This document shows, in pieces, positions 16,308 to 63,999 of a DNA stretch of 64,000 bases (positions within the stretch are counted from its first letter, which is position 1; every line of letters starts with the position of its first letter). The position numbers and the translations under genes were made by a program. The stretch spans positions 573-64,572 of the forward strand of contig CAJTPF010000017.1 of NCBI GenBank assembly GCA_910578175.1. The letters run 5' to 3'. The notes beneath the pieces are model-generated. The model was not told the origin of the DNA and did not search any database. It was given only the letters and a program-made list of their open reading frames with translations. Source of the stretch: an uncultured Lachnospiraceae bacterium. Its GTDB lineage: Bacteria > Bacillota > Clostridia > Lachnospirales > Lachnospiraceae.

Positions 16308-17594
16308 TTACAATACTATTTTTAAGGAAAACCATCCGTTTTCCGATGTAAAAGAACAAAAGGCATCATATTTTTTACAGAAAGCCATGATGGAGCGGGT
16401 ACCGATTCCGTGTTCTTCTTCTTTTGACTCGGGAATGCCGTTTTTGGAAAATACAACGGTATTGCCGCATGTATTGGAAATTTCCAGCATCAGTTTTGGT
16501 TTGCAGATGCATTTACAGATGATCGTTCTCTGTCCTTCCGGTAACAGGCGGCAGGCTTTTATGGCATTTTCCAGCGCATTTGCCAGCACAATGGAAAATT
16601 CTCCGGAATCCACCGGAAGGGAATCCGGAAAGGAAAGGTGTGTTTCCAGTACGATTCCTGATTCCCTGGCCTGACCGAAATAAGAGGACAGAGTTGCGTT
16701 TAAAAGTATATCTTTACAATATGTCACAGGCACTTCGGTCTGGAACAATGGGGCGGAGCAGGCAATATAGTCAAGAGCTTCAGAAATTTTTCCGTTTTCC
16801 AGCAGAGAGGCTAACGTTTGAAACCGGTGACGGGTATCATGTCTGTCGATCCTGGATCTTTCTGCAGTTATCGCGTCCAATGCAATTTTTTCTTTTAGAT
16901 TTCCTACCTGAAATTTCAAAAACTCCATATTTAGTTTTGCTGTCTGGAAATGATACTGTATGAACAGATATTGAAACAGGGCGAAATAAAGGATCACGAT
17001 GACTGCTCCCAGCAGATAGATAAAAATAACATTTGTGGGATTCTGGGTATAGGGAACAGGATAGGAAGCCAGAGCCACAGAAAGAACCATTAAGGAGCAG
17101 GGAACCAGTGCCAGTATCAGCCAGCCGTTTTTTGTAATGGCGGAAATCTGCAGAAACAGGCGGCGCAGAAAACGGTACTCCAATAAAATGATGGTGCTAT
17201 AGACCGCCAGGCGGAGCAGAAAGTCGGTCCATTCCGAGCCATGAACGGCAGTATTGATCAAAGTAATGCTTGCAGATATATACAAAGAAAATAAAATCTG
17301 CGTCGCATGGTTAAACACGGCCTTGGACGGCTGATCTCCTGCCAGCCGGAAGACCAGATAAATGGCAGGGGCGGAAATGGTAAGCAGGAACATCCGCAAA
17401 TAGAACGTATAGCCAAACAGGACTATGATGGCAGCGCTGGAAGCGGATACATAGCATAGATACAGAAAAAGAATCAGTGCGATCCGTTTTGCACTGTATT
17501 TGAATTTTGTAGTGGAACACATCATGCCCAGCGTACCGATGACGATCAGTAATGTCTTTAATGTGGAATATGGAATATTATTTTCAAATAACAT
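16308..17594 (-). CDS. Sensor histidine kinase, HPK10/AgrC-LytS type (multi-TM + GHKL ATPase)
   Basis: It has 6 or more N-terminal TM helices, the H-box region SRIDRHDTRHRFQ and a C-terminal HATPase_c. It overlaps the upstream LytTR regulator by 11 nt. Confidence 0.75.
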   Translation of the reverse strand: MLFENNIPYSTLKTLLIVIGTLGMMCSTTKFKYSAKRIALILFLYLCYVSASSAAIIVLFGYTFYLRMFLLTISAPAIYLVFRLAGDQPSKAVFNHATQILFSLYISASITLINTAVHGSEWTDFLLRLAVYSTIILLEYRFLRRLFLQISAITKNGWLILALVPCSLMVLSVALASYPVPYTQNPTNVIFIYLLGAVIVILYFALFQYLFIQYHFQTAKLNMEFLKFQVGNLKEKIALDAITAERSRIDRHDTRHRFQTLASLLENGKISEALDYIACSAPLFQTEVPVTYCKDILLNATLSSYFGQARESGIVLETHLSFPDSLPVDSGEFSIVLANALENAIKACRLLPEGQRTIICKCICKPKLMLEISNTCGNTVVFSKNGIPESKEEEHGIGTRSIMAFCKKYDAFCSFTSENGWFSLKIVL

Positions 17595-18336
17595 GAATAT
17601 CTCCTTTGTTCAGCCAGTAATCCGCCCATTTGGATTTCACGTCTTCATAGGTGCGGCGGGGAACGGGTATTGAGTATCCTCCGGTCAGCAGCATATCTGA
17701 TCTGGTAACTTCTGTTACATGGTACAGATTTACAACAAAGGAGACACCAACAGCAAGGAAGCCGCTATATGCAAGAAGCGGTGCGGCGGCATGCCGGAAA
17801 GTACCACAGAAGGATACGCTGTTTATCGTAGTGTGGTCATTCAGATAATAGCGGATAGAGCGGTTCACACGTTCCGCATATAGAATATTGTGGATGGGAA
17901 CGATGCGGGTGGAGCAGGGAGTTTTGATAGAAACGGTTTCCGACCGGAGATGGTTCAGGCGGCTTACGGCTTTATCCATACATAGGGAAAAACGGTTGCC
18001 GTTAATGGGCTTCAGGAGATAATGCAGGGCGTCCGTATTATAGGATTCCACTGCGAAATCAGGGGATGAAGTCAGATAGATGATAATACCGCCGTCATAT
18101 CGTTCACGCAGGGCGGAGCCAAGCCGGATACCGTTCATATCCGGCATGATGATATCTAGTATGTAAAGGTCAAAAGTTCCTTTATCTTCAATATGATCCA
18201 GCAGTTCTCTGCCGGAAGAAAAGCATGAGAGCTCAAAAGAGAATAGAGAAACCGTCTGTTTATAATCTTTTAATAATCTTTTTATTGTTTCGTGACACGT
18301 TGTTTCATCATCGCACAGAGCAATCCGTATCTGCAC
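17584..18336 (-). CDS. LytTR-family response regulator (REC + LytTR DNA-binding)
   Basis: The REC acidic pocket (ALCDDE ... ILDIIMPDMNG) and a C-terminal LytTR domain are present. Confidence 0.8.
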   Translation of the reverse strand: MQIRIALCDDETTCHETIKRLLKDYKQTVSLFSFELSCFSSGRELLDHIEDKGTFDLYILDIIMPDMNGIRLGSALRERYDGGIIIYLTSSPDFAVESYNTDALHYLLKPINGNRFSLCMDKAVSRLNHLRSETVSIKTPCSTRIVPIHNILYAERVNRSIRYYLNDHTTINSVSFCGTFRHAAAPLLAYSGFLAVGVSFVVNLYHVTEVTRSDMLLTGGYSIPVPRRTYEDVKSKWADYWLNKGDIHVI

Positions 18337-18596: not shown

Positions 18597-20612
18597 ATGA
18601 GGTGCAGAATTTTGTTAAAGACAATTAAAGGAAGACTTACAGTCAGTGTGATCGGCATTGTGGTAGCCGGTATACTTCTGGCTGCAGCAGGAATCATCAC
18701 GGTAGCAGGAAAGCGTCTGATTCAGGATCAAACCCGGGCCCTGCAGCTGAATGCGGATAAATACGGGGAAGAGATCAATACGTGGATTGAAAATGAAAAA
18801 ATGCTGGCAGTTGGTACAGCCGGCAGTTTGCAGGCCGGGAAGAAAACAGATACGGAATTTATCCAGTCGGTAGTGGATACCCATGCGGATGGCAGAAAGG
18901 AACTTTTAAATCTGTATTGCGGAACAAAAGACGGCAGGTTTATCCAGTCCAACAGAGAGGCAGAGATTCCGGATGGATATGATCCGGTACAACGGGGATG
19001 GTATCAGCAGGCAAAAGAAAAGGGAACAGTGATAGTGACAGATCCTTATTGGGATGTTATAACAAATCAGATGTGTACAACGATTGCGGCGCCGGTTTAC
19101 ATGGACGGAGAGCTGGCGGGAGTGATCGGACTGGATGTAACGCTTGGTACAGTTACAGATCTCACAGGAAGCATCAATTATGAAAAAGGTGTCTATGGTT
19201 TTCTGACGGACAGCAGCGGACAATATGTGGCGCATGAAAACAGGGAATATGAACCGACGGAGGATACGGCAGTTGCAGTAACGGATATAATGCCGGGACT
19301 GCAAGGATTGATCGGGGGGACGGATAACCGTGTGAAAAAGCTTAAGGATTATGACGGAAATATGAGTTATTTTGCAGTTGCCGATATTGAGGGCAGCGGC
19401 TGGAAACTGGGGGTCGTAGTGCCAAGCGCCAATATCAGGGGGGCCCTGCTTGCCATGATTGCAGTGGCGTTTATAATTTCACTTATCGTTATTGTATTTG
19501 TGGTATTGTTTATGGCGGGTCTGATCGGAAAGATGTTAGCACCGATACAGATGTTAAAGCAGTTTGCATCCGGAGATTTTTCGGAAAAAACCATGATTGA
19601 AAAAACGATTCCCAAAGAATATAAAAATGAGACAGAACAGATCCGCACCGCGACCGTGGAGGTCAGACAGCAGATTCGGGAGATTATCCTGAATACGAAA
19701 CAGAAGGCAGGCAATATCAGTACAATTGCCGAAAGCACATCCGGAAGGATGACGGAACTGAATCAGGAAATATCCGGTATATCCGGTCTGGTAGGCCGGG
19801 TAACGACACAGACGGTCCAGGCAAGGGAATTGACATCCATAATTATGAACAACGGAAGAGAACTGGGAGATGCTATAGAAAATGTAGCAAAAAAAGCAGG
19901 GGAAGCGGCAGAACAGTCCGGAAGCATTATGGAGAGGGCCGGAAAGCAGCATGAAACTTCCGGACAGTCTGCAGAAGAAGCTATGGCGCTATACCGGAAG
20001 ACGAAAGAAGATTTGGAAAAAGCAATTACCGACAGTCAGAGGGTACGGGAGATCAATACTCTGACTGATGAGATTCTTGCCATCAGCGCCCAGACAAATC
20101 TTCTGGCATTGAATGCATCCATAGAAGCCGTCAGAGCAGGGGAAGCAGGAAAGGGATTTTCCGTTGTTGCAGACGAAATCAGGCAGTTGGCGGACAATTC
20201 AAAACAGGCTGTGGATAAGATTCGTCAGGTGACGAAAGGGGTTGTACATAACGTTGCTTTTTTGTCGGAAAGTTCAGGAAAATTATTGGAATTTATGAAC
20301 GGAAAAGTAATGGAAGATTACAGGGGAATGACTGAACTTGCAGAAGTATATCAGAAAGATGCCATATTTTATAATGACATTTCCGAAGATCTGGGAGCCG
20401 CATCCGAAGAGATGAGCGCCAGCATGGCAGGCATCAATGAATCTATTGCTGCAATTACGGATCTTGTGGGTGAAATAGCGGAGTTTATGGGTAGTATGAA
20501 ACAGTCTGCAGAAAAATCCAATGAAAATTCAGAAGCCGTGGTAAAGCAGATGGAAGAATTGTTCCGGTTAAGCGAATCGTTAAACCGGACGGTAGCTTCG
20601 TTCAGAGTGTGA
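18597..20612 (+). CDS. Methyl-accepting chemotaxis protein with a periplasmic dCache_1 sensor
   Basis: It has TM1, a Cache-like region ([19 protein letters not shown]), TM2, HAMP and the MCP signalling domain ([31 protein letters not shown]). Confidence 0.85.
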
Positions 20613-20654: not shown

Positions 20655-21995
20655 ATGTTAGGTGGTCCGGTATACATAGCGCTGATCCGTTTTTCGGTCA
20701 GCCTTGCAGGAGTGATCATATTGTTTTTCCTGATGAGTGAACCGCGATATGAAAGAAAAAAGATGATCATCGGTTATGGTTGTTTTAGCACCGTGGTGAT
20801 CGTGTCGGCATGTATCTGGTATATGACCGACTGGGAAAGCTGTATAAAATTGGTGGCATTTGTAATGTTTATTTGCTTTTCTGTTTTTGCAGTATGTATG
20901 AGCAGCGACCATATCTATCTTTCGGTATATAAACTGGCTCTTACATTCTATCTGCTGGCAGTATTTCTTGTAGGCGGTCTGGAAGTATCCATATTGATTT
21001 TTCAAAGAAACGTGTGGGCCGATATTATTACCAGAATCATTCTGATCGTGCTCATGGCGCTTTTTATTGAGAAAAAAATAAAATATGCCATCCGTGGATT
21101 TGGCTATTATGTAGAAAACGAACTGGATCATATAAGTGTTACCATTATGATCATCAGCATCCTGTTTGGCATAGGCTTTATTTTAAATCCGAGTATTACG
21201 GATCAGACACCGTACCGCCTGTTTCAAATGGCCATAAACTTTTATCTGACCGGAGCCCTTCAGTTTCTGGTGTTCCGGCTTTATCTTCATATTGGTCAGG
21301 AAAAGGAATATCAGAAAGAGAATCAGTTGATGAAAATGAATCAGAGACTGTTGGAACGGAATATGGAACTTCTGGAGGAATCGGCGGAGTCCGGCAGAAG
21401 GATTCGTCATGATGTAAGGCATCATAACACAGTCATAGCTGAATATGCCCGAAGAGGACAAAACGGAGAATTGCTGCAATATCTAAAGGAATATACCAGA
21501 AAAACGGACAGTGGGATTTCGGAGAAAATTTGTGCCAATACTGCGGTCAACAATATACTTTCAGCCTATACAAGAAAGGCGAAAAGGCAGCAGATTCAGG
21601 TTACGCTGGATGTGGAACTGAACAGAAAACTGTCCATACCCAATATTGATCTGGTAACAATACTGGCAAATGCCTATGAAAATGCCATATTCGCCTGTAT
21701 GGAAGTAAAAAATCAGTCAGCAGGCAGATCATGCTTTATTCATTTAATGCTTAAAAGAAAGAAAAATAAACTGGTCATTTGTTGCCGGAATACCTGCCGG
21801 GCAGAAACCGAATTAAAAAACGGAGAGCCAAAACCGGAATTTACGGGTGGTATCGGTGTCCTCAGCATAATCAAAACAGCGGCTAATTATGATGGGGAGT
21901 ATGATTTCAGAAATGATAACGGGGTCTTTATTTTTCGACTGATCATGAAAATTCCTTCGACAGACGGAAATTTAAATAAAAATCTGAAAATTTGA
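20655..21995 (+). CDS. Sensor histidine kinase, HPK10/AgrC-type, paralogous to the kinase at 16308-17594
   Basis: It has multi-TM N-terminal helices, the H-box RRIRHDVRHHNTV and a GHKL C-terminus. Confidence 0.75.
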   Translation: MLGGPVYIALIRFSVSLAGVIILFFLMSEPRYERKKMIIGYGCFSTVVIVSACIWYMTDWESCIKLVAFVMFICFSVFAVCMSSDHIYLSVYKLALTFYLLAVFLVGGLEVSILIFQRNVWADIITRIILIVLMALFIEKKIKYAIRGFGYYVENELDHISVTIMIISILFGIGFILNPSITDQTPYRLFQMAINFYLTGALQFLVFRLYLHIGQEKEYQKENQLMKMNQRLLERNMELLEESAESGRRIRHDVRHHNTVIAEYARRGQNGELLQYLKEYTRKTDSGISEKICANTAVNNILSAYTRKAKRQQIQVTLDVELNRKLSIPNIDLVTILANAYENAIFACMEVKNQSAGRSCFIHLMLKRKKNKLVICCRNTCRAETELKNGEPKPEFTGGIGVLSIIKTAANYDGEYDFRNDNGVFIFRLIMKIPSTDGNLNKNLKI

Positions 21996-22008
21996 AAGGA
22001 GTCTGTAA

Positions 22009-22737
22009 ATGTATCAGATAGCGATTTGTGATGATGAGACGGAAGAGTTGGATAAAACGGAACAAATGCTGATCGGTTATGGAAAAAAATATCCGGAAAC
22101 AAAATTCATGATTCAACGTTTTGAAAGTGCAGATGAACTGCTGGATATGATCAGCAGTAACAATTATATACCGGAACTGATTCTGATGGATATATATATG
22201 CCCGGAAAAATCGGAATTGAAGCAGCCGGAGAACTACAGGAAATGGGAAACAGAGCGCGGATTATTTTTCTTACCACATCGAAAGAGCATGCGTTAGCGG
22301 CATTTGGTGTTAAGGCGTCGCAATATCTGGTAAAACCGGTATCCGAAAAAATCTTGTTTCCTGTATTGGACAGTTTGCTGGAGGAGATTGAGGAAGAGCG
22401 AAAAAGATATCTGCTGCTCCGTATTGAGGGAAGGATTCAGCGCATTGCAGTCAATGAAATTGAATACTGCGAAGCTCAGGGAAAAACACAGTATTTGCAT
22501 CTGGCAGATGGCAGAAAGTATTTGCTGCGCATAACCATGGCGAAGATCTATGAAAAGCTTTCCCGGTACCGGGAGTTTGTTAGAGTAGGAATCGCATATA
22601 TTGTGAATCTCGAACATATTGACAGTCTGAATGCCCAGGATATCTGTTTTGGTACCGGAAAGAAAATCTATCTGCCAAGGGGAGCCTATAAAACTTTAAA
22701 AGAGCAGTATTTTCGGTATTATTGTGAGGAGAACTGA
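22009..22737 (+). CDS. LytTR-family response regulator
   Basis: The REC domain (AICDDE ... ILMDIYMPGKIG) and a LytTR domain are present. Confidence 0.8.
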   Translation: MYQIAICDDETEELDKTEQMLIGYGKKYPETKFMIQRFESADELLDMISSNNYIPELILMDIYMPGKIGIEAAGELQEMGNRARIIFLTTSKEHALAAFGVKASQYLVKPVSEKILFPVLDSLLEEIEEERKRYLLLRIEGRIQRIAVNEIEYCEAQGKTQYLHLADGRKYLLRITMAKIYEKLSRYREFVRVGIAYIVNLEHIDSLNAQDICFGTGKKIYLPRGAYKTLKEQYFRYYCEEN

Positions 22738-22791: not shown

Positions 22792-23274
22792 TCAGGAAAG
22801 ACCAGAAATGAATTCAGAGATATATTTATCGAATGCATGTTCCAGGGATTTATCCATCGTAAATATCTTCAGAGAGGCGCCGGTCACACAGCATGCGGCG
22901 CCGTTTTCATATTTAATATTGATAAACAGTTCATTGACATCATTTAGGGTAAGAGTGGTTTCAACGGACTCGATCAGTGAATTTATAAATGATTCGTTCA
23001 TGGCAAATATGATCTTCATTTTTACCGGTGTTTTATGTCCCTTGATCAGGTTATAACAAATAGGCCGCAGCGTTTTGTAGCTGCTTAATTTCTGTTGGGT
23101 CAATCCGTTAAATTCATCATCCGAATAGAACTCTCTGCAGATATGTCCGTCAATCCGGAAGGTATTATAGGTAGTAATGCTTATGCTGTTTACCAGAAAA
23201 GCATCGAATTTATCAGAGGCCAGCAGGAAGTTCATGAATTTTTTTAAATCTTTAATTTCTTCTGCGATCATGGT
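22792..23274 (-). CDS. Hypothetical protein (~160 aa), divergent from purO
   Basis: The ORF has RBS aaagga before the ATG (MIAEEIKDLKK). No domain was recognised. Confidence 0.4.
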   Translation of the reverse strand, partial: TMIAEEIKDLKKFMNFLLASDKFDAFLVNSISITTYNTFRIDGHICREFYSDDEFNGLTQQKLSSYKTLRPICYNLIKGHKTPVKMKIIFAMNESFINSLIESVETTLTLNDVNELFINIKYENGAACCVTGASLKIFTMDKSLEHAFDKYISEFISGLS

Positions 23275-23379
23275 AATCCTTTCAAAAAAGATAAAATATT
23301 CAGGCAAACGCAGCCTGGTAAGATATAAATAAAATCATAACATAGATAAAATGATTTTTCAAATATAATAGTTTAGGAA

Positions 23380-24067
23380 ACTATTCAGACAGAGTTGTTG
23401 TGGTTAGATTATAATTATCTGAAACAGACGCATGTATGCCCGGTGAAATTGGTTCGATGTTCCACTACAGACAGAAGGAAGTTCTTAGTGTTCTGCAACA
23501 GGTATTTTCAGACGGACGCTACCGGCGGATATTCGGCATCCTGCCTCAATTCCGCCTTTTTCTGACCTCGTGTCAGAAAATAGCTGAGATTCCAGCAGAA
23601 CACTTAGAACTTCCAATCTGTCTTCCGTAGTCACATCGAACCAATTTCACCGGGCATACATGCTGTGTGTTGACAGAATTTATAATAGAAAATCTCAATC
23701 ATCTATATTTTGTCTGAGTAAGTCACGTGGAAAGAACATAGCTGATTCTGGAAATCTGGTAGAGAACAGCAGATGTGAAAGCCTTCGGACACCGGTTGGC
23801 GATTTTCGGAAAACGTCTGATAGTTCTTGGTGTTCTGCCTGAAAAAAACAGCTATTGTCTGACAGGAGGTCAGACAAAGTCAGCAGTTGAGGCATGGATG
23901 CCGAATTGCTGACGGTAGCGTCTGCCTAAGAATATCTTCCGCAGAACACTTAGAACTATCAGGCTTTTGAAGATGAGCTAACCGGTGTCCGAAGGCTTTC
24001 ACATCTGCGTCCGGCTAGACAAATCCCCAAAGCAGAAATCTAACCACAACAACTCTGTCTGAATAGT
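23380..24067. repeat. Nested inverted-repeat complex: a 31-bp perfect outer IR enclosing two hairpin units (X 23430-23663, Y 23769-24008) with mutually inverted ~100-bp cores
   Basis: The outer IR is 23380-23410 / 24037-24067, perfect. Unit X's IR is 23430-23460 / 23633-23663, perfect over 31 bp. Unit Y's IR is 23769-23797 / 23980-24008, perfect over 29 bp. Both units share an inner 17-bp IR (agttcttagtgttctgc, one or two mismatches) at 23480-23496 / 23595-23611 and 23822-23838 / 23941-23957. Core X (23497-23594) is close to the reverse complement of core Y (23839-23940). Confidence 0.8.
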
Positions 24068-24146
24068 ATTCTATTGTAAAATATTTAAAATAATGGTATG
24101 ATAATACAATCTATGAAAACACATACATTAGGAGGTCTTTGAACGA

Positions 24147-36136: not shown

Positions 36137-36493
36137 GTGAATTCGTTGATAGTGAAAAGAGGAGATGTGTTTTATGCAGACCTTAGACCGGTCATCGGTT
36201 CGGAACAGGGCGGCATAAGACCGGTATTGATCATTCAGAATGATATGGGAAACAAACATAGTCCGACAGTGATATGCGCCGCCATTACCTCAAAAATGAA
36301 CAAGGCAAAGCTTCCCACCCATGTGGAGCTTGACAGCAGCAAATATGAGATGGTGAAGGATTCGGTAATTTTGCTGGAACAATTGAGGACGATTGATAAA
36401 AAAAGGCTGAAAGACAAAGTATGTCATTTGGATGCGGAAATTTTAAATAAAGTGGACCGGGCATTGCTGATTAGTCTTGAATTAAATACATAG
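36137..36493 (+). CDS. ndoA: MazF/PemK-family endoribonuclease toxin (EndoA/NdoA-like)
   Basis: It aligns closely with B. subtilis EndoA ([12 protein letters not shown]...[12 protein letters not shown]). No antitoxin-sized ORF lies in the 79-bp gap after alr. Confidence 0.85.
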
Positions 36494-50194: not shown

Positions 50195-50965
50195 TTAGGT
50201 TATATTATTTATGATTGACAAAAATATCCGGTTTAATTCTTCATAGCCGCAAGGAGTTTCCTGTTTCAGAAAAGGAAGGGAATCAGGAAGTTCCTTTAGG
50301 TTTCTGTCAATATATCTGTTTAAATCTTCGATTTGCGGGCATAGTTCAGTTTCTGGCGAATGCATTTTTAAATCCAGCAGTTTATGAATGACCGGTTGCA
50401 GTTCCGGTTCCAGTTCCGCCTCTGCCAGAGTTTGGAAAAATACCGGCGGAGGTGAATTTTTATCCAGAATCCACTTACAGGCCAGAAGGGGACGGATGAC
50501 ATAGAAATATTTTTTTAGTCGTACCATATCACCCTTCCGGCAGCTTTTGTAGTTATTGATGGCAATATTCAGATAGTGATGGAATCCGGCTTTTGGAGAA
50601 AAATACTGACTGAGCAGTGATTTTAACCGGTTCCATTCCTCTGTATACCGATAGATAATGGGAGAATCTGCCCATTCGAATAATGTGGGATTGGAGCCTT
50701 TTAACAGCCGTAGCGCTTTTTGCAGGTCCCAACCGTTGATATCCAGCGTATCATCTAACTGCCATTCGATGACATCTCTGGTTTTTTCTAATTTCAGATA
50801 AAAATCCGGACGTCGTACATAAATAAATCTTACGTCGTAATCGCTGTCCGGGGAAGCGAATCCCCAGGCACGGCTGCCGGATTCCAGGGCATAAATGATT
50901 TTTACCTGTTCCTGTTTTTCGATTTCTGAAATTTTTTTCTGAATGATCGGATCCAATAAGAACAC
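50195..50965 (-). CDS. Pol-beta-superfamily nucleotidyltransferase, RlaP-like (RNA-repair-associated NTase)
   Basis: The minimal NTase motif GSRAWGFASPDSDYDV is present. It lies immediately downstream of rtcB on the same strand. Confidence 0.6.
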   Translation of the reverse strand: MFLLDPIIQKKISEIEKQEQVKIIYALESGSRAWGFASPDSDYDVRFIYVRRPDFYLKLEKTRDVIEWQLDDTLDINGWDLQKALRLLKGSNPTLFEWADSPIIYRYTEEWNRLKSLLSQYFSPKAGFHHYLNIAINNYKSCRKGDMVRLKKYFYVIRPLLACKWILDKNSPPPVFFQTLAEAELEPELQPVIHKLLDLKMHSPETELCPQIEDLNRYIDRNLKELPDSLPFLKQETPCGYEELNRIFLSIINNIT

Positions 50966-50991
50966 CTTCTTTCTAATGATTAGTTGTAGAT

Positions 50992-52215
50992 TCAGGAGCC
51001 TGCTTTAAAATTGTAAACAGGTTTGATCATTTTGATGATATCAGCAGTAGGAGTGATATTATTTACTATGTCTTCCGCATTTTTATATGCCATCGGACAT
51101 TCATCCAAGGTGGAAGGGTGAATGGAAGTGGTATAAATGCCTTCCATTTCTTTTTCAAACTCTTCTAACGTGAATTTTTCTTTTGCTGCAGAGCGGCTGT
51201 ACAGGCGTCCGGCTCCATGAGGAGCGGAGCAGTTCCAGTCTTTATTTCCTTTGCCGATACAGATCAGACTTCCGTCCCGCATGTTAATGGGGATTAAAAG
51301 TTTTTCTCCTTTTTTAGCGGAAACAGCTCCCTTTCGGACGATATTGCTGTCATGATCGATATAGTTATGAACGGTTTCAAAGGATGGGAAGTCTGACAGT
51401 TCTTTATTCAAAAGTTCTTTTAGAATGATATCGGCAATCGTTAGCCGGTTTAAGTTTGCAAAATGCTGGCATATTTTCATGTCTGCCAGATAATCATCTC
51501 TGTATGTTCCGGTGAGATAACATAAATCCTTTGGCACATGAATATCTTTTGCTTCAAACCGGGATTTTAATTCCCTGATCGCCGTCTGTATATCGTTTTT
51601 TCTTCCTGCCGCCTTATATTCTGCTATGATACGGTCCCGTTCCTGAAAAAGAGTATCCTTCCCGCAGAGAATCTCATATGCCATATTCTGATGGTATTCC
51701 GCAACCTGTTTTCCAAGGTTCCGGCTTCCGGTATGAATCACCAGATACTGGTTTCCATCCCCGTCCCGGTCAACTTCTATAAAATGGTTGCCGCCGCCCA
51801 GGGTTCCGATGCTGCGCTGAATACGTTTGGTATCTTTTAAAGCCCGGTAGCAGGTTAAAGCCTGTAATTCAGGGAATCGTACGATTCTTCCGGGATGGAC
51901 CTGTTTTCCGGCGGGTACATAGGCGCGGATGATGGTGTCCAGCCTTTTCAGATCAATGGTTTCTTTTCCAAGCTCTACCGTCAGCATACCGCATCCGATA
52001 TCCACGCCCACAATGTTGGGAATCACCATATCCCCAAGATTGGCAGTAAATCCGATCACGCAGCCGTTTCCGGTATGAACATCCGGCATGATACGGATCT
52101 GACAGCCTTTTACAAAGGGCTGGCTGCATAACTGTTCAATTTGGGAAATGGCGCTGTTTTCGATTATATTTGTAAAAACGGTTGCGGATGCATAAGTTCC
52201 GTTGATAATATTCAT
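50992..52215 (-). CDS. rtcB: RNA 3'-phosphate/2',3'-cyclic phosphate-5'-OH ligase RtcB
   Basis: The metal/GMP-binding motifs DVHTGNGCVIG, HNYID and APHGAGR are present. RBS aaaggagga precedes the start. Confidence 0.85.
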   Translation of the reverse strand: MNIINGTYASATVFTNIIENSAISQIEQLCSQPFVKGCQIRIMPDVHTGNGCVIGFTANLGDMVIPNIVGVDIGCGMLTVELGKETIDLKRLDTIIRAYVPAGKQVHPGRIVRFPELQALTCYRALKDTKRIQRSIGTLGGGNHFIEVDRDGDGNQYLVIHTGSRNLGKQVAEYHQNMAYEILCGKDTLFQERDRIIAEYKAAGRKNDIQTAIRELKSRFEAKDIHVPKDLCYLTGTYRDDYLADMKICQHFANLNRLTIADIILKELLNKELSDFPSFETVHNYIDHDSNIVRKGAVSAKKGEKLLIPINMRDGSLICIGKGNKDWNCSAPHGAGRLYSRSAAKEKFTLEEFEKEMEGIYTTSIHPSTLDECPMAYKNAEDIVNNITPTADIIKMIKPVYNFKAGS

Positions 52216-52412
52216 GGTGTTGTCCTCCTTTATATGGTTTGAAAAAATATTTTTTGGCGGCTGTGCATCGGCAGCAAAAAACTTTTTTTTGTATTAACTT
52301 TAAAATTAATATAAGAAGTTTAAATTTGTTGCGGTTAAACATCATATCAGCCGGGAAACAGCCGCCGGACCCCGTTCCCCCGCTCCGGCGGCGTCCTCTT
52401 TGTCGATATGAG

Positions 52413-53519
52413 TCAACCGACTGCATTTCCGCCCCGCATAATCGTATTAAGCTGTGACAGCAAATCCGCATTCCCATTCACCGATATATTCCCCACATTT
52501 TCGCAGATTCTCTCCAGATATTCCAGTTCTTTTAATTTGTACAGTGTCCGGTTTTCGTCCATCAGTTTTGCAGTATTTAACAGGGAGCGGGTTGAAGCTA
52601 CCTCTTCTCTGCGGGTGATGACATTTGCCTGTGCCCGTTTTTCAGCAATCAGTACGGAATTCATGATTTCACGGATTTCTCCCGGAAGAATGATATCCCG
52701 GATTCCGGCATCCATGATGTCGATATAAAATTCTCTGGCTTTCAGTTTCAGCTTTTCGAATACCTGTTCAGAGATTTCGTCTTTATTTTCCAGTATTTCA
52801 TCAATGGTATGTCTGCCGATGTATTCACGGAGTGCAAGTTGCGCCGCTATATGCAACTGTTCCTCATAATTGTCAATTTCGGTCAAAACTTTTGTGTAAT
52901 CTGTTATTTTATAATTGCAGATGAAATTGATTCGAAGGCATACTTTATCTTTGGACAGGATTTCCTGACCGGTAATGGTAAGCTGGGTTAAGCGTGTATC
53001 CACGTAATCGGCATTTACTTTCGTTTTGTATTGCCAAAAGTAATAGATACCGGAATCCAGCAGACGAACCAGGTGTTTATTATAGTAAAGACGGGCTTTC
53101 ATATATTCGGCCACCTCAACTTTGGTATACAGGTGCGTAGGAATCCGTGTGAACATGAATTGCGGTATTTCAGCGGCTGATTCCGGTTCCGTCATATTGA
53201 TCCGTGTAAAAGTATGTTTATCATGAACAGACCAGAATGCATATGTACCGGCTGTCAGGGCTTCCGTAAATCTGCCGTTTATGAAATGGAGCGCCAGTTC
53301 CTCATCCGGCACATCGATCACCGTGGTATCTGCAGCCACGGCAGAATTTTTAAGCAGTACATCCAAAGAAGCAATTTTTGAAGCAAGAGGCTGATCCAGG
53401 GATACCAATTCTATCTTTTTTTCGCCGAAGACATGATATTTACCGGCGTTTAACAGTGTTATGAATTTTCCGTTATGAAAGAGAAGTCCTCTTTGATTTT
53501 CTGTGATTATTGTTTTCAT
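52413..53519 (-). CDS. Cytosolic SPFH/band-7 (stomatin-prohibitin-like) protein with triplicated N-terminal beta-hairpin repeats, no TM segment
   Basis: The SPFH core (IDIMDAGIRDIILPGEIREIMNSVLIAEKRAQANV) is present. A repeated G.Y.FW motif occurs three times N-terminally. RBS caggagg precedes the start. Confidence 0.6.
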   Translation of the reverse strand: MKTIITENQRGLLFHNGKFITLLNAGKYHVFGEKKIELVSLDQPLASKIASLDVLLKNSAVAADTTVIDVPDEELALHFINGRFTEALTAGTYAFWSVHDKHTFTRINMTEPESAAEIPQFMFTRIPTHLYTKVEVAEYMKARLYYNKHLVRLLDSGIYYFWQYKTKVNADYVDTRLTQLTITGQEILSKDKVCLRINFICNYKITDYTKVLTEIDNYEEQLHIAAQLALREYIGRHTIDEILENKDEISEQVFEKLKLKAREFYIDIMDAGIRDIILPGEIREIMNSVLIAEKRAQANVITRREEVASTRSLLNTAKLMDENRTLYKLKELEYLERICENVGNISVNGNADLLSQLNTIMRGGNAVG

Positions 53520-53825
53520 ATATTAAACCTCCTGTTGTTAAAAATAATATCAATCCTTGAAAGCGCCTTTTTCCATGCAGGAAATGCGGCCGATAAATTT
53601 AGTTTTACTGCGGCATAAGCGGAAGCGCTGCTTTGGCTTATGAAGGATTAAAACGGTATCCTTTTCGGGCAGGGCATTTTCTGCATTGTTACTTCAAAGC
53701 AGATATGAAATGCAGGGCATTTGATACCTGACATCGAGTAACCGGAAAATGGCTGTTCTGATTTTGATTGTGTTCCTAACACAATGGCATAAAGCCAAAA
53801 ACCAAAGCCACTTGGCCGGAAGGAA

Positions 53826-53890
53826 AATCCGGGCAGGATTCGAACCTGCGATGTAAAAAGTTTTAGCATACATTTTGGTATAACCGGATG
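53826..53890 (-). ncRNA. tRNA-like element: acceptor-like stem, U8, 4-bp D-stem and canonical T-arm (GCAGGTTCGAATCCTGC) but no anticodon stem. It could be a Y-RNA/YrlA-like tRNA mimic or a degenerate tRNA-Arg remnant.
   Basis: The minus strand reads CATCCGG-TT-ATACcaaaatGTAT-g-(17 nt unpaired)-GCAGGttcgaatCCTGC-CCGGATT. It lies between the WYL gene terminator and the SPFH-rtcB operon. Confidence 0.4.
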
Positions 53891-53972
53891 AACTATGGTG
53901 AAATCCGTTAGGATTGATTCACCAACTGTTTTACAAGGGATATTGTAATGGAAAATCATGGAAGAATCACGG

Positions 53973-54024
53973 AAAAAAAGTTGCGAACTCTTATTTCGGT
54001 CCGCAACTTTTTTGTTGGATAAGC
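53973..54024. terminator. Bidirectional intrinsic terminator after the WYL-pair operon (minus strand)
   Basis: The stem agttgcg...cgcaact has an A-tract and a T-tract on either side. Confidence 0.6.
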
Positions 54025-54917
54025 CGTTCTTTTATTAAATCAATAAATGAACACGGCTCTGTGACTTTGATAAGTGGCCCGAAGGACAGAACCCGGATCA
54101 CCAGTTCGGTTTCATCCTCCCGGTTATAACGGATTTTAATCTGATACCGGTCGTCGGACAGGCGTCCCGCTTCTTTTTCAAAGTGGGCAAAATGCATCAT
54201 AACACGTTCCAGGGCATTCCGCCGGTCCTCCAGCTCCAGTATAAAATAACTGGAATTGGTTTTGGAGATATGATTTCTTATATCTGTATCTTCTGATAGT
54301 ATCCCGCAGGTTTCTATACGGCTTACATTGATGATATCCGTAAACCGGCAGCCGTCTACCAGCAGCCGGAATTTATCATCTTTTTCCGAGTATTCCAGCC
54401 GGACGGGGGAGCAGAAAAAGTTCCGGCGTATGCCTTTCTTACCCAAATAACAGACTTTTATTTTTTTTCGTGTCCGAAGGGCGGTTAAAATGGTATGGAA
54501 TATACGGATATAATGTTCCTCGGTGTAAGGGTCTCCGTCTCCGTATTGATCAAAGTTTACATAATCCGACGGGGTAAACAGCGGAGGTATATCTGTTTTG
54601 ATTATTTTCTGCAGAAATTCATATTCCTGCCGGAACAGACGGACGCGCGGATCCAGTGCGACAGCTTTCAGCCAGCGTAGTTCCAGTGTGGAAAGGGGAA
54701 GCGTGGGAGGGTGTTTTAACGGAGTATGCAGGGAAGAATCCAGTAACTGCCAGCGCTCCTGTTCCAGAGCCGGCAAAATAGTGAGAAAGCTTTCCGAGAA
54801 TGTATTCCGGGTGACGAGTTCTTTCATTCTGGCTTCCGTTAAAGTTCCGCTGACAGCGGAATCCAGTATTCTGGCTACCGCATTGTAATAGCAGCCGTAT
54901 ATTTCATGAAACAGCAT
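53991..54917 (-). CDS. WYL-domain regulator (WYL + C-terminal WCX), PafC-like partner
   Basis: It has a WYL-like core (IKVCYLGKKGIRRNFFCSPVRLEY...FRLLVDGCRFTDIINVSRI) and a WCX-like tail (LVIRVLSFGPLIKVTEP). It is translationally coupled to the upstream WYL gene. Confidence 0.55.
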   Translation of the reverse strand: MLFHEIYGCYYNAVARILDSAVSGTLTEARMKELVTRNTFSESFLTILPALEQERWQLLDSSLHTPLKHPPTLPLSTLELRWLKAVALDPRVRLFRQEYEFLQKIIKTDIPPLFTPSDYVNFDQYGDGDPYTEEHYIRIFHTILTALRTRKKIKVCYLGKKGIRRNFFCSPVRLEYSEKDDKFRLLVDGCRFTDIINVSRIETCGILSEDTDIRNHISKTNSSYFILELEDRRNALERVMMHFAHFEKEAGRLSDDRYQIKIRYNREDETELVIRVLSFGPLIKVTEPCSFIDLIKERLIQQKSCGPK

Positions 54918-56191
54918 TAGCAGTCACCTCCGATCTCATAGAGCTGATACATAGCTTCCAAATCCTGCCGGAACTGGTTTTCGATCGTACGGTTGGAAAA
55001 ATCCATAGAAGTAATGCGGCAGATAAAGGTTCGGATCCAGGGAATCATTTCATTGGTATCGAAGACATCTGCCGTAAAACGGTATGTATGTTCATCGGAA
55101 CGTTCCACGGCGCCGCAGCGTTTTTCACGTTCCAGACGCTGATATATGTATTCTTCACCGGTCTCTATACGAAGGGTAAATTCAACGTGTTCCAGACGAA
55201 ACTCTTTTATTTTTTCGTATCCGTTAGAAATTTCAAGGGAGACGTTACAGGAAATTCCCCACATATGGGATTGGATCTGCTGAAGTATTTCCCTTAGCCG
55301 GTCAAATTCATGAAAGGGTTCCAAAGGTTTTATACCGGTGATATAATCCAGCCGGTAGGATTTCATACAGTGAAGTTCCGGGTTATAAGACATAAGATAG
55401 CAGCGTCCGCTTTGGACACTGATAAATATTTTAAGAGGAATCACCCTCCATTCCCGGTGACGGCCGGTGCGACGGGAATAATTGATGATGGACACACATC
55501 GTTTTTCACTGATTGCCTCAAATAACCGGCAGAGAATTTCACTTTCCAAAGCATGGGTGATGTAGTGATGTTTAAACGTAAAATATTTCGTGTGATTTTC
55601 TGTTTTATCCAGCAGGAAACTTCCGATTACACCACAGGGAGCCGTTTCGGAGAAAAATTCCAGCATATCGGTGAAAGGTGGGAGTTTTGCCGGTCCGGTC
55701 CGGCTATATAGTATCTGACGGCCCTGTCTGCTGGCGGTCAGCAGACCCAGTTCCATATATTCCTTTAATTTTTTACGGACTGTAGATTTATCAAACAGGA
55801 TCGGACTGGTAAAGCCGCAGAGATATTCGTTGTCGATTTTATCAATGATTTCATCAATGGAAAGCCGCTGCTCCTCCATATGAAGAATGTCAAACAGAAT
55901 GAAGTGCAGCGTAATGTCTCCGTCCGTAAAACTTTTGGCTTTTAAGGCTTTGTAAAGCGGATTGTGAAAAGAATTTCTACTGTCAATGGATAGGAATATA
56001 TTTTTTCCGGCAGCAGTCTGATGAAATCCCATATAGTCTCCCAGATAGCTTTCAATCCTTCTCCGTTCATTATCATAGGAGCGGGCGCTTTTTTTATTAT
56101 ATTCCTCCCGGCTTTTAAAACCATACAGATAAAATTCCCGCATATAGTCCCGGATACGTTCAAAATTTTTGATCAGTTCATGGTAAGCCAT
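54917..56191 (-). CDS. HTH-WYL-WCX transcriptional regulator (PafB/BrxR/CapW-like)
   Basis: It has a WYL domain (REWRVIPLKIFISVQSGRCYLMSYNPELHCMKSYRLDYITGIKPLE), an N-terminal wHTH-like region and a C-terminal WCX-like segment. Confidence 0.65.
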   Translation of the reverse strand: MAYHELIKNFERIRDYMREFYLYGFKSREEYNKKSARSYDNERRRIESYLGDYMGFHQTAAGKNIFLSIDSRNSFHNPLYKALKAKSFTDGDITLHFILFDILHMEEQRLSIDEIIDKIDNEYLCGFTSPILFDKSTVRKKLKEYMELGLLTASRQGRQILYSRTGPAKLPPFTDMLEFFSETAPCGVIGSFLLDKTENHTKYFTFKHHYITHALESEILCRLFEAISEKRCVSIINYSRRTGRHREWRVIPLKIFISVQSGRCYLMSYNPELHCMKSYRLDYITGIKPLEPFHEFDRLREILQQIQSHMWGISCNVSLEISNGYEKIKEFRLEHVEFTLRIETGEEYIYQRLEREKRCGAVERSDEHTYRFTADVFDTNEMIPWIRTFICRITSMDFSNRTIENQFRQDLEAMYQLYEIGGDC

Positions 56192-62169: not shown

Positions 62170-62595
62170 ATGATTTCAGAAGAATTGAAAGCAATTGTAG
62201 ATAAACTTAAGGAACAAGGAAAGATGAATTTTCTTCCTGAAACTTCAGAAGAAAAGATAACTTCGTTTGAAAAAGAGAATAGTGTTAAACTTCCTGAAAA
62301 GTATAAAGAATGGTTGTTGTTTTCTGATGGAGGAGAGCTTTTTCTTCCAGCCGGCATACAATTATACGGCGTTGAACACAAACCACTTATAAATGTGAAT
62401 GACAATTCAAGACCAAGTGAGGACTGTGTTGTTATTGGTGCATTGGCGTCAGGAGACCCTATTCTCTTTAAAAAGGATAGTGAAAAAATTGCAATCTATA
62501 ATCAGGCGGCAGGAAGAATTGAAGATGATGAAATCTATGATAACTTCGTAGCGTTCTTAAATGACCTGTATGATTTGCTTGGCATAGGAGGTTGA
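62170..62595 (+). CDS. SMI1/KNR4 (SUKH-1) family immunity-type protein
   Basis: The LPEKYKEWLLFSDGGELF motif is typical of SUKH-1 at ~140 aa. Confidence 0.65.
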   Translation: MISEELKAIVDKLKEQGKMNFLPETSEEKITSFEKENSVKLPEKYKEWLLFSDGGELFLPAGIQLYGVEHKPLINVNDNSRPSEDCVVIGALASGDPILFKKDSEKIAIYNQAAGRIEDDEIYDNFVAFLNDLYDLLGIGG

Positions 62596-62599
62596 TTCT

Positions 62600-63472
62600 A
62601 TGTCGAGAAGAACAGCAGAATCCAATAAGGCTATTCTTGCTGCGTGGAATAAAGAACAAGAGCTTGTTCAGGAAGGAAAAGGAACAAGAGAGTGGACTCC
62701 TCAGCAACAGCAGGATATCCTTGAAAAAGGAAAAGCCTATGATGATAACGGGAAAGCTTTTGAAGGTCAGCATATGAAGAGTGCTGAGATGTATCCTGAG
62801 TATCAGGGCGAACCCGGAAATATACAATTCCTTACAAGAGCAGAACATTTAGAGGCTCATGATGGTAATTGGCAAAATCCAACGAACTGGTATTTTAACC
62901 CGGTAACAAAAGAAAAATTTGACTTTGGTGACGGGCCATTCATTCCGTGTGAGATAATTCAACTACCAGAACCTATTATTTCTTTAACGGATGATTCGAC
63001 TATACAGGAAATAGTTATTGAAGAAAAAGAAAATTTTAGTAAGGTTGAGGATGCCTTGAAACAATCTACAGAAACAAGTAGAAAAACATACAGTAAACCT
63101 GAACCACCAAAGACTCATAAAGTACAGATTGAAACTCCTAAAAAAGCAAATAATGCTTTTGTTAAAGGGTTAAAATTAGTCGGAAGATTTATTGTTGAGC
63201 ACCCAGTCGAGTCACTTGAAATAGCTGGATTAGCAATTGGTGGTGTAGCAAAAGCAGTATTTTCCATCAAAGGTAGAGGTTCTGGAAGTACACATAGCAC
63301 ACCATCTACTTCTGCAAATTCATCAGTCGCAGAGAAGGTTGCAGATATAGTAGAAAAAGCAAGCAGGTCTTTACCAAGCGAGAACGATGTAACGGGACAT
63401 AAACAACGCTACCATACGAAAAACGGTGTAGTATGGAAAGATAAAGCTCCATACCACAGAGGTGGCAAATAA
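62600..63472 (+). CDS. Hypothetical protein with an HNH/beta-beta-alpha-Me nuclease-like motif (toxin C-terminal-domain-like), lacking a secretion/delivery domain
   Basis: The H...N...H spacing in GQHMKSAEMYPEYQGEPGNIQFLTRAEHLEAHDGNW fits an HNH-like motif. The gene is translationally coupled to the SUKH gene (4-bp gap). Confidence 0.35.
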   Translation: MSRRTAESNKAILAAWNKEQELVQEGKGTREWTPQQQQDILEKGKAYDDNGKAFEGQHMKSAEMYPEYQGEPGNIQFLTRAEHLEAHDGNWQNPTNWYFNPVTKEKFDFGDGPFIPCEIIQLPEPIISLTDDSTIQEIVIEEKENFSKVEDALKQSTETSRKTYSKPEPPKTHKVQIETPKKANNAFVKGLKLVGRFIVEHPVESLEIAGLAIGGVAKAVFSIKGRGSGSTHSTPSTSANSSVAEKVADIVEKASRSLPSENDVTGHKQRYHTKNGVVWKDKAPYHRGGK

Positions 63473-63636
63473 CCAAAACAACCCTCCCTGCCAGTCAAGG
63501 TCGAGAGGGTTTCGTGCGTCGATAGGTATTATCCTTCAATATCAATTTTTAGTCCGGACTTGAGCTCCACCGTGAAGTGGTCTTTCCAGACGGTAATTTG
63601 CTTGAGCCAGCGTTTAACTGGATTGTCAACACTTTT

Positions 63637-63999
63637 TCAGACAACTTTTTTAAGGTTATTTTCCCTATATTGTATTGGTGTTTGATATCCCAAAGAGGAA
63701 TGTATTCTGTGATGGTTGTACCAGTGTATATAATCCCATAGCTTTAGTTTCAGTTCTTCCAGACTGGCAAATGTTTCATTCCATACAAATTCCGTTTTTA
63801 TGATCTTAAATGTCGCCTCTGCCACTGCATTATCATATGGGCAGCCTTTATGGCTCAGGGAGCGTTCTATATGAAACGTTTCCAGTAGTTCCTCTATTGT
63901 CTGGTTTTTGAATTCATTTCCGCGGTCTGTATGGAACAGACGGATCTCTTCGAGGCTTCCTTCTACGCTTTGAAAGGCTTCTTTTACAAGCTCTGCCAT
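63637..63999 (-). mobile_element. IS3-family transposase (OrfB integrase core, C-terminal part; gene continues past the window end)
   Basis: The DDE integrase core C-terminal region (HTDRGNEFKNQ...YNHHRIHSSLGYQTPIQY) is present. Confidence 0.8.

Follow-up and report, generated by a model that had tools for sequence, protein, structure and literature searches.

What the long, nested palindromes between two divergently oriented genes of a gut bacterium are, and whether they move, flip or regulate, is the question raised by a stretch of 64,000 nucleotides (nt) from an uncultured Lachnospiraceae bacterium (contig CAJTPF010000017.1 of assembly GCA_910578175.1), which as a whole is called the window in the following. 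Its positions 23380-24067 form a 688-bp cassette between a gene for a DUF5721 protein (minus strand, ATG at 23271) and the purO/purH genes (plus strand, from 24147). An earlier note, made from the letters of the window, had offered three models for this region, namely a small element with terminal inverted repeats (TIRs) that inserted twice into the centres of existing palindromes, an inversion between inner inverted repeats (IRs) in which one core has flipped, or a long structured 5' leader of purO-purH. In our opinion, the cassette is probably one copy of a TIR-bounded repeat family of Lachnospiraceae that carries two units of the RNA motif TwoAYGGAY and is inverted at its ends by an end-recognising enzyme. 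The parts of the cassette are listed here, with the strand given where one applies.

23380-24067: whole TIR-bounded cassette and invertible segment, defined by its in-silico flip, which equals the contigs L003 and L006, and by the homology limits of its copies
23380-23410: left TIR (outer IR arm), ACTATTCAGACAGAGTTGTTGTGGTTAGATT, complementary at 31/31 positions to 24037-24067
23430-23460, minus strand: 3' arm of the basal stem of unit X, pairing at 31/31 positions with 23633-23663; compensatory change in contig L046, and covariation
23463-23629, minus strand: core of unit X, TwoAYGGAY (RF01731), 109.7 bits in cmscan, model positions 1-168 of 168
23633-23663, minus strand: 5' arm of the basal stem of unit X, pairing with 23430-23460
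23664-23768: central spacer of 105 bp; in folds with the flanks, its ends prolong the X and Y stems distally, with imperfect pairing
23769-23800, plus strand: 5' arm of the basal stem of unit Y, 32 nt pairing with 23977-24008, with one G.U on the plus strand
23804-23975, plus strand: core of unit Y, TwoAYGGAY (RF01731), 103.8 bits in cmscan, model positions 1-168 of 168
23977-24008, plus strand: 3' arm of the basal stem of unit Y, pairing with 23769-23800
24037-24067: right TIR (outer IR arm), partner of 23380-23410

The strongest evidence comes from other assemblies of the same species. Via the proteins encoded by purO and the DUF5721 gene, conspecific contigs were retrieved from assemblies of gut metagenomes; the label mouse gut is given in two of the records (PRJEB7759). 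The orientation seen in the window was found in seven full-length contigs (L001, L004/78, L005, L007, L076, L079, L080) and three partial ones, and the flipped orientation, i.e. 23380-24067 reversed with respect to both flanks, in four full-length (L002, L003/77, L006, L075) and two partial contigs. Flipping 23380-24067 in silico reproduced L003 and L006 base for base, with the exception of one single-nucleotide polymorphism (SNP) in the flank. SPAdes, MEGAHIT and Logan contigs all contain the window orientation, and the flipped one occurs in SPAdes and Logan contigs. Because the shared repeat (31 bp here, 9 bp at the second locus described below) is shorter than the k99-k141 of the MEGAHIT contig labels, SPAdes contigs carrying no recorded k, the junctions of both orientations must exist in the reads. 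The contigs fall into two sequence clades, each of which holds both orientations, hence at least two inversion events have to be assumed under a tree-like history; in one clade, there is not a single difference inside the element between the two orientations. Variants at the inner end of the outer repeat remain with the X or the Y side across orientations, which places the exchange point within the outer approximately 25 bp, and in clade 2, where both orientations are present, the identical TIR stretch is only about 25 bp long. A core flipped between the perfect arms of X or Y was found in none of approximately 17 contigs of the window's species. A flank SNP near 23366 was considered as a marker linked to orientation, and this link is broken by L076, L079 and L009. 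Thus, in natural populations the cassette was turned around exactly at its TIRs, and at this locus no fewer than two such events occurred. The inversion suspected in the earlier note does occur; it concerns the whole 688-bp segment and runs between the outer IRs, and no unit was flipped between inner ones.

An inversion at the element ends has also taken place in a sister species, at another locus that is not linked to the first. It could be shown by aligning two assemblies of this species, L041 and L090, which are identical at 2746 of 2752 positions once a 676-bp segment (L041 5835-6510) has been flipped. L041 belongs to the metagenome-assembled genome (MAG) MGBC121271; over 688 nt its copy, which comprises both X and Y in full length, is 81% identical to the cassette of the window and lies between an amidase gene and a thiM operon with a thiamine pyrophosphate (TPP) riboswitch. 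The TIRs are only 76% alike at this locus, and the exchange took place inside the sole 9-bp stretch that they share, TTCTGTCAG; at the junctions, the inner bases have changed sides, whereas the outer ones are still attached to their flanks. The RF01731 matches swap both place and strand between L041 and L090, so the doublet remains divergent after inversion. The cores of this second cassette form a 93-nt inverted repeat of 95% identity and each unit has perfect arms of 32 bp, none of which was used for the exchange. Since a 9-bp terminal exchange was used over much longer inverted identities, we infer that the inversion is made by an end-recognising enzyme, which would be encoded elsewhere in the genome, either as a site-specific recombinase or as a transposase of the family itself; general homologous recombination is less likely as the cause. 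The second cassette lies approximately 30 nt upstream of the promoter of the thiM/thiE operon (TPP riboswitch at L041 6580-6687, L090 4074-4181, L091 3308-3419), and a lysine riboswitch is situated 4 kb upstream of it (L041 1606-1783).

The nested architecture from which the earlier note had started is present as it was described in nearly all points. The outer 31-bp IR is perfect at both ends (31/31) and continues imperfectly (23357-23410 with 24037-24090, 54 nt, 85%), the 31-bp IR that closes X is perfect as well, and the 29-bp IR claimed for Y is the perfect part of arms which are 32 nt long. The cores had been called alike and mutually reverse-complemented, which is true at approximately 79% identity (62 nt at 79% plus 31 nt at 90%; 78.7% over 136 nt in BLAST). 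The common inner 17-bp IR occurs in both units, each of which has a nearly perfect inner repeat of 17-20 nt, but it is not perfect, as the partner in X has one mismatch and the arms in Y differ at two positions; AGTTCTTAGTGTTCTGC, the inner repeat, is found in four copies in the window, compared to 0.09 expected by chance. Single-strand folding gave z-scores of -15.7 for X, -16.8 for Y and -29.7 for the whole unit. Hence, the nested structure is far above chance level, in agreement with the view that such long perfect IRs are not accidental.

The identity of the cores became clear from Rfam, since both are full-length matches to RF01731 in cmscan, with 109.7 (X) and 103.8 (Y) bits compared to a gathering score of 43. 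No further match was obtained in the Rfam scan of the window, and no leader family was detected at E<=1. The assignment to a known family, which the earlier note had foreseen for a leader, thus applies to the cores, but the family is an orphan RNA and not a leader. TwoAYGGAY was found in 2010 as an orphan motif in human gut samples, Clostridiales and gamma-proteobacteria (Weinberg et al. 2010, PMC2864571), and the binding of CsrA via GGA loops was proposed for it later (PMC4333381). The homologous cassettes contain 10 more full-length matches and one that is cut by the end of the stretch. Single-sequence and alignment folds recovered the two-hairpin structure on a common basal stem, which the window copies share with the Rfam model, together with GGA-containing loops and a host taxon (Clostridia, gut) that matches the original listing (PMC2864571). 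The copies in the window differ from the model in that each of them carries an additional, near-perfect stem of 31-32 bp, and in their loops, which read ACGAG and AGGAU in X and AGGAG and AUGGAU in Y: the literal AYGGAY occurs in one of the four and GGA in three of the four, loop 1 of X being without GGA and loop 1 of Y not an AYGGAY.

X on the minus and Y on the plus strand point apart with a 174-nt gap, within the 2 kb allowed for the members of a doublet, and thereby form a divergent doublet, and the other doublets in related genomes are likewise divergent (4/4; 5/5 including the window). Because X and Y form such a doublet, their mutual inversion is the normal arrangement of the TwoAYGGAY family, with no core flipped. 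In Pseudomonas, according to the main text of a preprint, TwoAYGGAY doublets are frequent, 68.4% of them are divergent and their spacing is 163-312 bp with a median of 249 bp (Li et al. 2026, 10.64898/2026.09.22.753630), which resembles the 5/5 divergent doublets and the 174 bp reported here. The same text describes multiple copies with variable copy number, suspects a 'mobile-element-like' expansion, mentions an elongated basal stem in copies from Bacillota and leaves the link between mobility and function open (10.64898/2026.09.22.753630). The differences are that extra hairpins, a pseudoknot, 5-6-nt upstream repeats and arrays of repetitive extragenic palindromic (REP) sequences are described there for Pseudomonas, whereas the doublet in the window is a discrete TIR-bounded cassette that inverts, traits which do not seem to be mentioned in the main text of the preprint.

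The existence of a whole family of such cassettes, for which the earlier note had proposed to look for multiple copies, was supported by a pattern scan over one genome per species. It returned 60 stretches, nearly all of them from Lachnospiraceae MAGs and several per genome, hence the element is indeed repeated among the relatives. Homology among copies at unrelated loci starts and stops exactly at the outer repeat, and for this reason the outer repeats are regarded as the TIRs of a discrete element with one or two units. The family TIR consensus, which was built by hand, is (A)CTATTCAGGCAGAATTGCTGCAGGTGGATT; it was found at the copy ends in L015, L017, L020, L040, L041, L046, L051, L070, L071, L074 and L082, and the flanks of the TIR-bearing copies are unrelated except at orthologous loci. 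Further doublets are present in L020, L040 and L015, and in L017 repeats of this kind enclose a single unit. The left and the right TIR arm of the window depart from the consensus at the same seven positions, a sign of concerted evolution of the two arms. The ends of the copies are abutted by TA in 8 of 12 and by CTA in 7 of 12 cases, which fits a CTAG/TA target, although these bases can equally be attributed to the TIR; the target of IS630, an insertion sequence (IS), is CTAG with TA duplication (PMC2577343). Searches outside genomes found nothing in a viral contig scan, among PLSDB plasmids or in a phage collection. A JGI metagenome scan with the window TIR gave 0 matches, and the metagenome scan with the family TIR gave chance matches only, none of which had a TwoAYGGAY core.

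The scan also revealed a second, higher-scoring TwoAYGGAY subfamily (in L018-L069, e.g. L032 595-762, L063 2090-2257, L055 747-904) which consists of singletons and is hosted by ruminant and other gut Lachnospiraceae MAGs. Its stems are 60-100 bp long and end outward in another conserved repeat, AAGTCGGTCTCTTATATTTTC and its complement, after which a U-rich tail is frequent. It seems that every TwoAYGGAY subfamily has a terminal repeat of its own. Furthermore, many contigs from metagenomes and MAGs end in or at the edge of cassettes (L008-L014, L070, L071, L074, L051, L082), and several contigs of ABMPRH_278_1 begin at an identical position in the unit core; the cassettes break short-read assemblies.

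The comparison with relatives also indicates how the cassette is placed with respect to its neighbours. In two sister species with approximately 89% nucleotide identity, the element is present at the orthologous loci (L046; L071 with L082). In the more distant L085, whose DUF5721 protein is 80% identical, purO and the DUF5721 gene are separated by 175 bp only, and both of the following promoter-like sites are kept.

23334-23362, minus strand: promoter-like TTGAAA-17-TATGAT (with TG) in front of the DUF5721 gene, outside the element at a distance of 17 nt from the left TIR, kept in L085
24074-24102, plus strand: promoter-like TTGTAA-17-TATGAT (with TG) in front of purO, outside the element at a distance of 6 nt from the right TIR, kept in L085

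At the amidase/thiM locus, the intergenic region of a relative (L091-L095) measures 214 bp compared to about 1 kb in L041/L090, and no TwoAYGGAY was detected at the empty-site loci in L085 or L091, the two that were scanned. The distance between cassette and -35 box is 6-30 nt at both loci. From these alignments, the cassette is an insertion between two divergent promoters, neither of which was disrupted. Since the promoter-like sites lie outside the element and are kept in L085, which lacks it, we regard the cassette as an insertion rather than a purO leader. One further contig with a DUF5721 gene, L081 (1-2003), was considered as evidence on the site: in this ABMPRH_278_1-like species, the homology to the window ends 15 nt upstream of the DUF5721 start codon and the gene lies beside an isochorismatase gene, but the contig is either rearranged where the cassette would be or chimeric, and therefore uninformative.

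The long arms of the units deserve special attention, because the model of an entry into palindromes depends on them. Every unit possesses its own 32-bp arms, which are perfect or almost perfect, the stem extends 30-100 bp past the Rfam core in every TwoAYGGAY copy returned by the scan, and the arms are homologous between cassette copies at unrelated loci. In an alignment of 12 units of the window's subfamily from 7 loci over their whole length, compensatory double changes were found in 28 of the 32 arm pairs, with at most four pair types per position, and in 42 of the 81 predicted pairs of the whole unit structure. Because they are homologous across loci and covary, the arms are part of the unit, and the arms of X and Y are inherited, covarying, elongated basal stems rather than former target palindromes. 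An apparent exception is the ortholog of the window's locus in the MAG MGBC121271 (L046 4743-4799), in which the Y core is lost and one full arm plus 12 nt of the other are kept; both arms share the same two changes there (GTGGAG for GTGAAAG), and pairing is preserved. As only 12 nt of one arm and unit-internal sequence remain, this site is a deletion remnant and was ruled out as an empty palindrome. Internal copies of the TIR in the units, as expected from nested self-insertion, were also looked for and dismissed, the best scores being 8-10 compared to a mean of 9.0 for the shuffled TIR.

Taken together, we propose that the region is one copy of a non-coding, TIR-bounded repeat family in mouse-gut Lachnospiraceae. 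The element would contain one or two hairpin units, each with TwoAYGGAY at the tip and a long near-perfect stem at the base which is variable yet paired. In the window, X on the minus and Y on the plus strand would face outward as a divergent doublet between the 31-bp TIRs, and the cassette would have come to lie between the divergent DUF5721 and purO promoters without disrupting them. Its inversion would be carried out by an enzyme that acts on the element ends and is encoded elsewhere in the genome. We presume that X and Y are made as structured RNAs, and CsrA binding via the GGA loops is a published proposal (PMC4333381).

Several results weigh against this explanation. No serine or tyrosine recombinase, for which the earlier note had suggested a search, is encoded among the 55 open reading frames (ORFs) of the window, where mobile elements are represented by a single gene, a truncated rve (DDE) fragment at 63637-63999, and neither the loci fetched nor the metagenome TIR scan revealed an autonomous element bounded by these TIRs. 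Both orientations were seen in none of the samples together; among the conspecific assemblies, both were found as the earlier note had thought possible, but they differ between samples only, as judged from assembled contigs, and concern the whole cassette rather than a core. A target-site duplication beyond a possible TA was not clearly visible at 12 ends, the empty sites in L085 and L091-L095 being too diverged for this comparison. Moreover, neither the central spacer nor the sequence upstream of X and Y contained a convincing sigma-70-type promoter. This also concerns the transcript start which the earlier note had thought possible between the units: the TTGACA at 23670-23675 and the TATAAT at 23681-23686 are both there with the 5-nt gap reported, but this spacing is non-functional and the stretch belongs to the distal X stem. 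In several units of the family, the arm is preceded at 12-13 nt by a TG-TAAATT-like box, which X and Y of the window lack. Finally, the strand-specific wobble pairs give weak support for pairing at the RNA level. On the modelled strand of the 32-bp arms, G.U outnumbers A.C by 9 to 1, but a strand-symmetric count of isolated mismatches over the long stems of all copies resulted in 22 G.U and 22 A.C, and the strand-symmetric arm-to-arm alignment in 104 against 119. The minimum-free-energy (MFE) folds, with 212 G.U against 42 A.C, were discarded as support for an RNA strand; since the opposite strand yields the same picture (271 against 51), this count is biased.

Among the rival explanations, we judge a passive quasi-palindrome unlikely. 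It would be a decaying repeat that is inverted by homologous recombination of the host or by template-switching during replication, with no dedicated enzyme involved. The identity of the outer IR in the window (31/31) comes near the shortest length on which RecA-type exchange can act, conversion from arm to arm would account for the seven shared departures from the consensus, and no recombinase is encoded nearby. Nevertheless, a passive process should not have bypassed the 93-nt inverted repeat of 95% identity and the 32-bp perfect arms of the second locus in favour of 9 bp, nor would one expect that equally long perfect arms of X and Y never flipped a core in the approximately 17 contigs, or that clade 2 shows both orientations with about 25 bp of identity. 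An assembly artefact would be suggested by the many short contigs that break in the region, but the identity shared by the repeats (31 bp and 9 bp) lies below the k99-k141 of MEGAHIT, and SPAdes gives both orientations as well. We regard an artefact as very improbable and, jointly with it, the third model of the earlier note, in which the region is a 5' leader or riboswitch of purO-purH: the location of the cassette in front of purO would be in line with such a leader, but the promoter-like site of purO lies downstream of the element and is kept where the element is missing, and Rfam did not return any leader family.

The situation is similar for a small palindrome-targeting element that inserted twice into existing hairpins, which we consider hardly credible despite the fact that each core is centred in a perfect palindrome of 31-32 bp and that the Y arms persist in L046 without their core. 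The arms are homologous across unrelated loci and covary with the units, L046 shows a deletion and not an empty target, and TIR-like motifs inside the units score no better than shuffled controls. What remains of this first model of the earlier note is the element itself, which is TIR-bounded, multi-copy and mobile-looking with empty sites in relatives, but the palindromic target without insert, which the note had proposed to look for, was not encountered, as none of the orthologous sites has an uninterrupted hairpin. A classical inverton with phase switching, in which the orientation sets the expression of DUF5721, purO or the RNAs, would be suggested by an IR-bounded segment between divergent genes that recurrently exists in both orientations and lies 6-30 nt from a -35 box at both loci. 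The inversion does turn X toward the gene previously faced by Y, and vice versa, and reverses the 105-bp spacer. However, the doublet is divergent in either state, so that the pseudo-symmetric cassette always directs an outward TwoAYGGAY unit toward each gene, and the promoter-like sites of the flanking genes lie outside the segment, kept in a relative without element. The 31-bp repeat beside each flanking promoter is identical in both orientations; because the same repeat abuts each promoter in both states, the cassette is probably not a classical ON/OFF promoter switch for purO or DUF5721. Together with the lack of a detectable promoter in the spacer and upstream of the units, phase switching of any of these targets becomes quite doubtful.

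The enzyme-inverted TwoAYGGAY cassette that we favour is difficult to place among known systems. With invertons such as fimS/FimBE, hin/hix or the RecV-dependent switches of Clostridioides difficile, it shares a short, non-coding, IR-bounded intergenic segment that exists in both orientations, the exchange in a short core (9 bp at the second locus) and an enzyme that may act in trans. It differs from them as there is no nearby invertase, no internal promoter or coding end was detected and the flanking genes own their promoters, and because it is a member of a mobile-looking family with multiple copies and contains structured RNA modules. Bacterial miniature inverted-repeat transposable elements (MITEs) and foldback repeats, among them Correia/NEMIS, ERIC, RUP, REPINs and the IS630-type MITEs, are similar in being small, non-coding, TIR-bounded and multi-copy at unrelated intergenic sites near promoters, with empty sites in relatives, folding into long hairpins and the TA at 8/12 and CTA at 7/12 ends. 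In contrast to MITEs, neither a transposase partner nor a proven target duplication was found for the cassette, and its internal unit stems vary between copies while they stay paired. To our knowledge, the in-situ inversion of a whole element is not a described property of MITEs. Hence, the cassette resembles an inverton in the way it works and a MITE in its appearance, but it can be filed as neither, because no invertase is encoded in the window and neither a promoter payload nor a target duplication or transposase partner could be demonstrated. One may even speculate that TwoAYGGAY is the RNA or single-stranded DNA hairpin part of a new recombination system, in which an enzyme acting in trans and the TIRs invert and move the cassette. 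The RNA-assisted systems of IS110 and IS200/IS605 would offer a loose likeness to such a role, to which we assign little probability.

With regard to previous work, the TwoAYGGAY core family is already known, and divergent doublets and a suspected mobility have been described for Pseudomonas in 2026. Measured against the main text of that preprint, the TIR-bounded cassette, the empty sites, the compensated perfect arms in such detail and, above all, the precise and recurrent inversion at two loci appear to be new, and the titles of the other listed papers on TwoAYGGAY and of those on invertons and Lachnospiraceae gave no hint of any of these four either.

Some other observations were made in the window and its relatives. 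Just upstream of the DUF5721 gene, two paralogous pairs of GHKL histidine kinase and LytTR response regulator (16308-18336 on the minus and 20655-22737 on the plus strand) flank a gene for a dCache methyl-accepting chemotaxis protein (18597-20612). In L087 (4655-6480), a more distant relative with a DUF5721 protein of 61% identity, the DUF5721 gene adjoins a Cas12a (Cpf1)-Cas1-Cas2 locus, and a FliD-like gene is situated between the DUF5721 gene and purO. A gene for a MazF/PemK-type toxin (36137-36493, plus strand) lies directly downstream of alanine racemase, and no antitoxin ORF was identified for it. An RNA-repair-type cluster (50195-56191, minus strand) comprises RlaP (PF10127), RtcB, an SPFH/Band_7 protein, two ORFs without Pfam match and a WYL-domain protein. 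At the end of the window (62170-63999), an immunity-type protein of the SUKH (SMI1/KNR4) group is followed by a protein with a Tox-GHH nuclease-toxin domain and then by the truncated rve ORF.

For the TwoAYGGAY family in Bacillota, the cassette provides handles at the DNA level, i.e. defined TIRs, empty sites and, at two loci, an inversion which is precise and recurrent and whose exchange core measures 9 bp or less. Moreover, as the cassette breaks or flips metagenome assemblies and lies only a few bases from promoters, it can confound the annotation of regulatory regions in gut Lachnospiraceae. Which enzyme moves or flips TwoAYGGAY elements and whether the RNA participates can now be tested directly. 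If the reading as a recombination system were true, it would give this 16-year-old orphan RNA class a role in DNA rearrangement.

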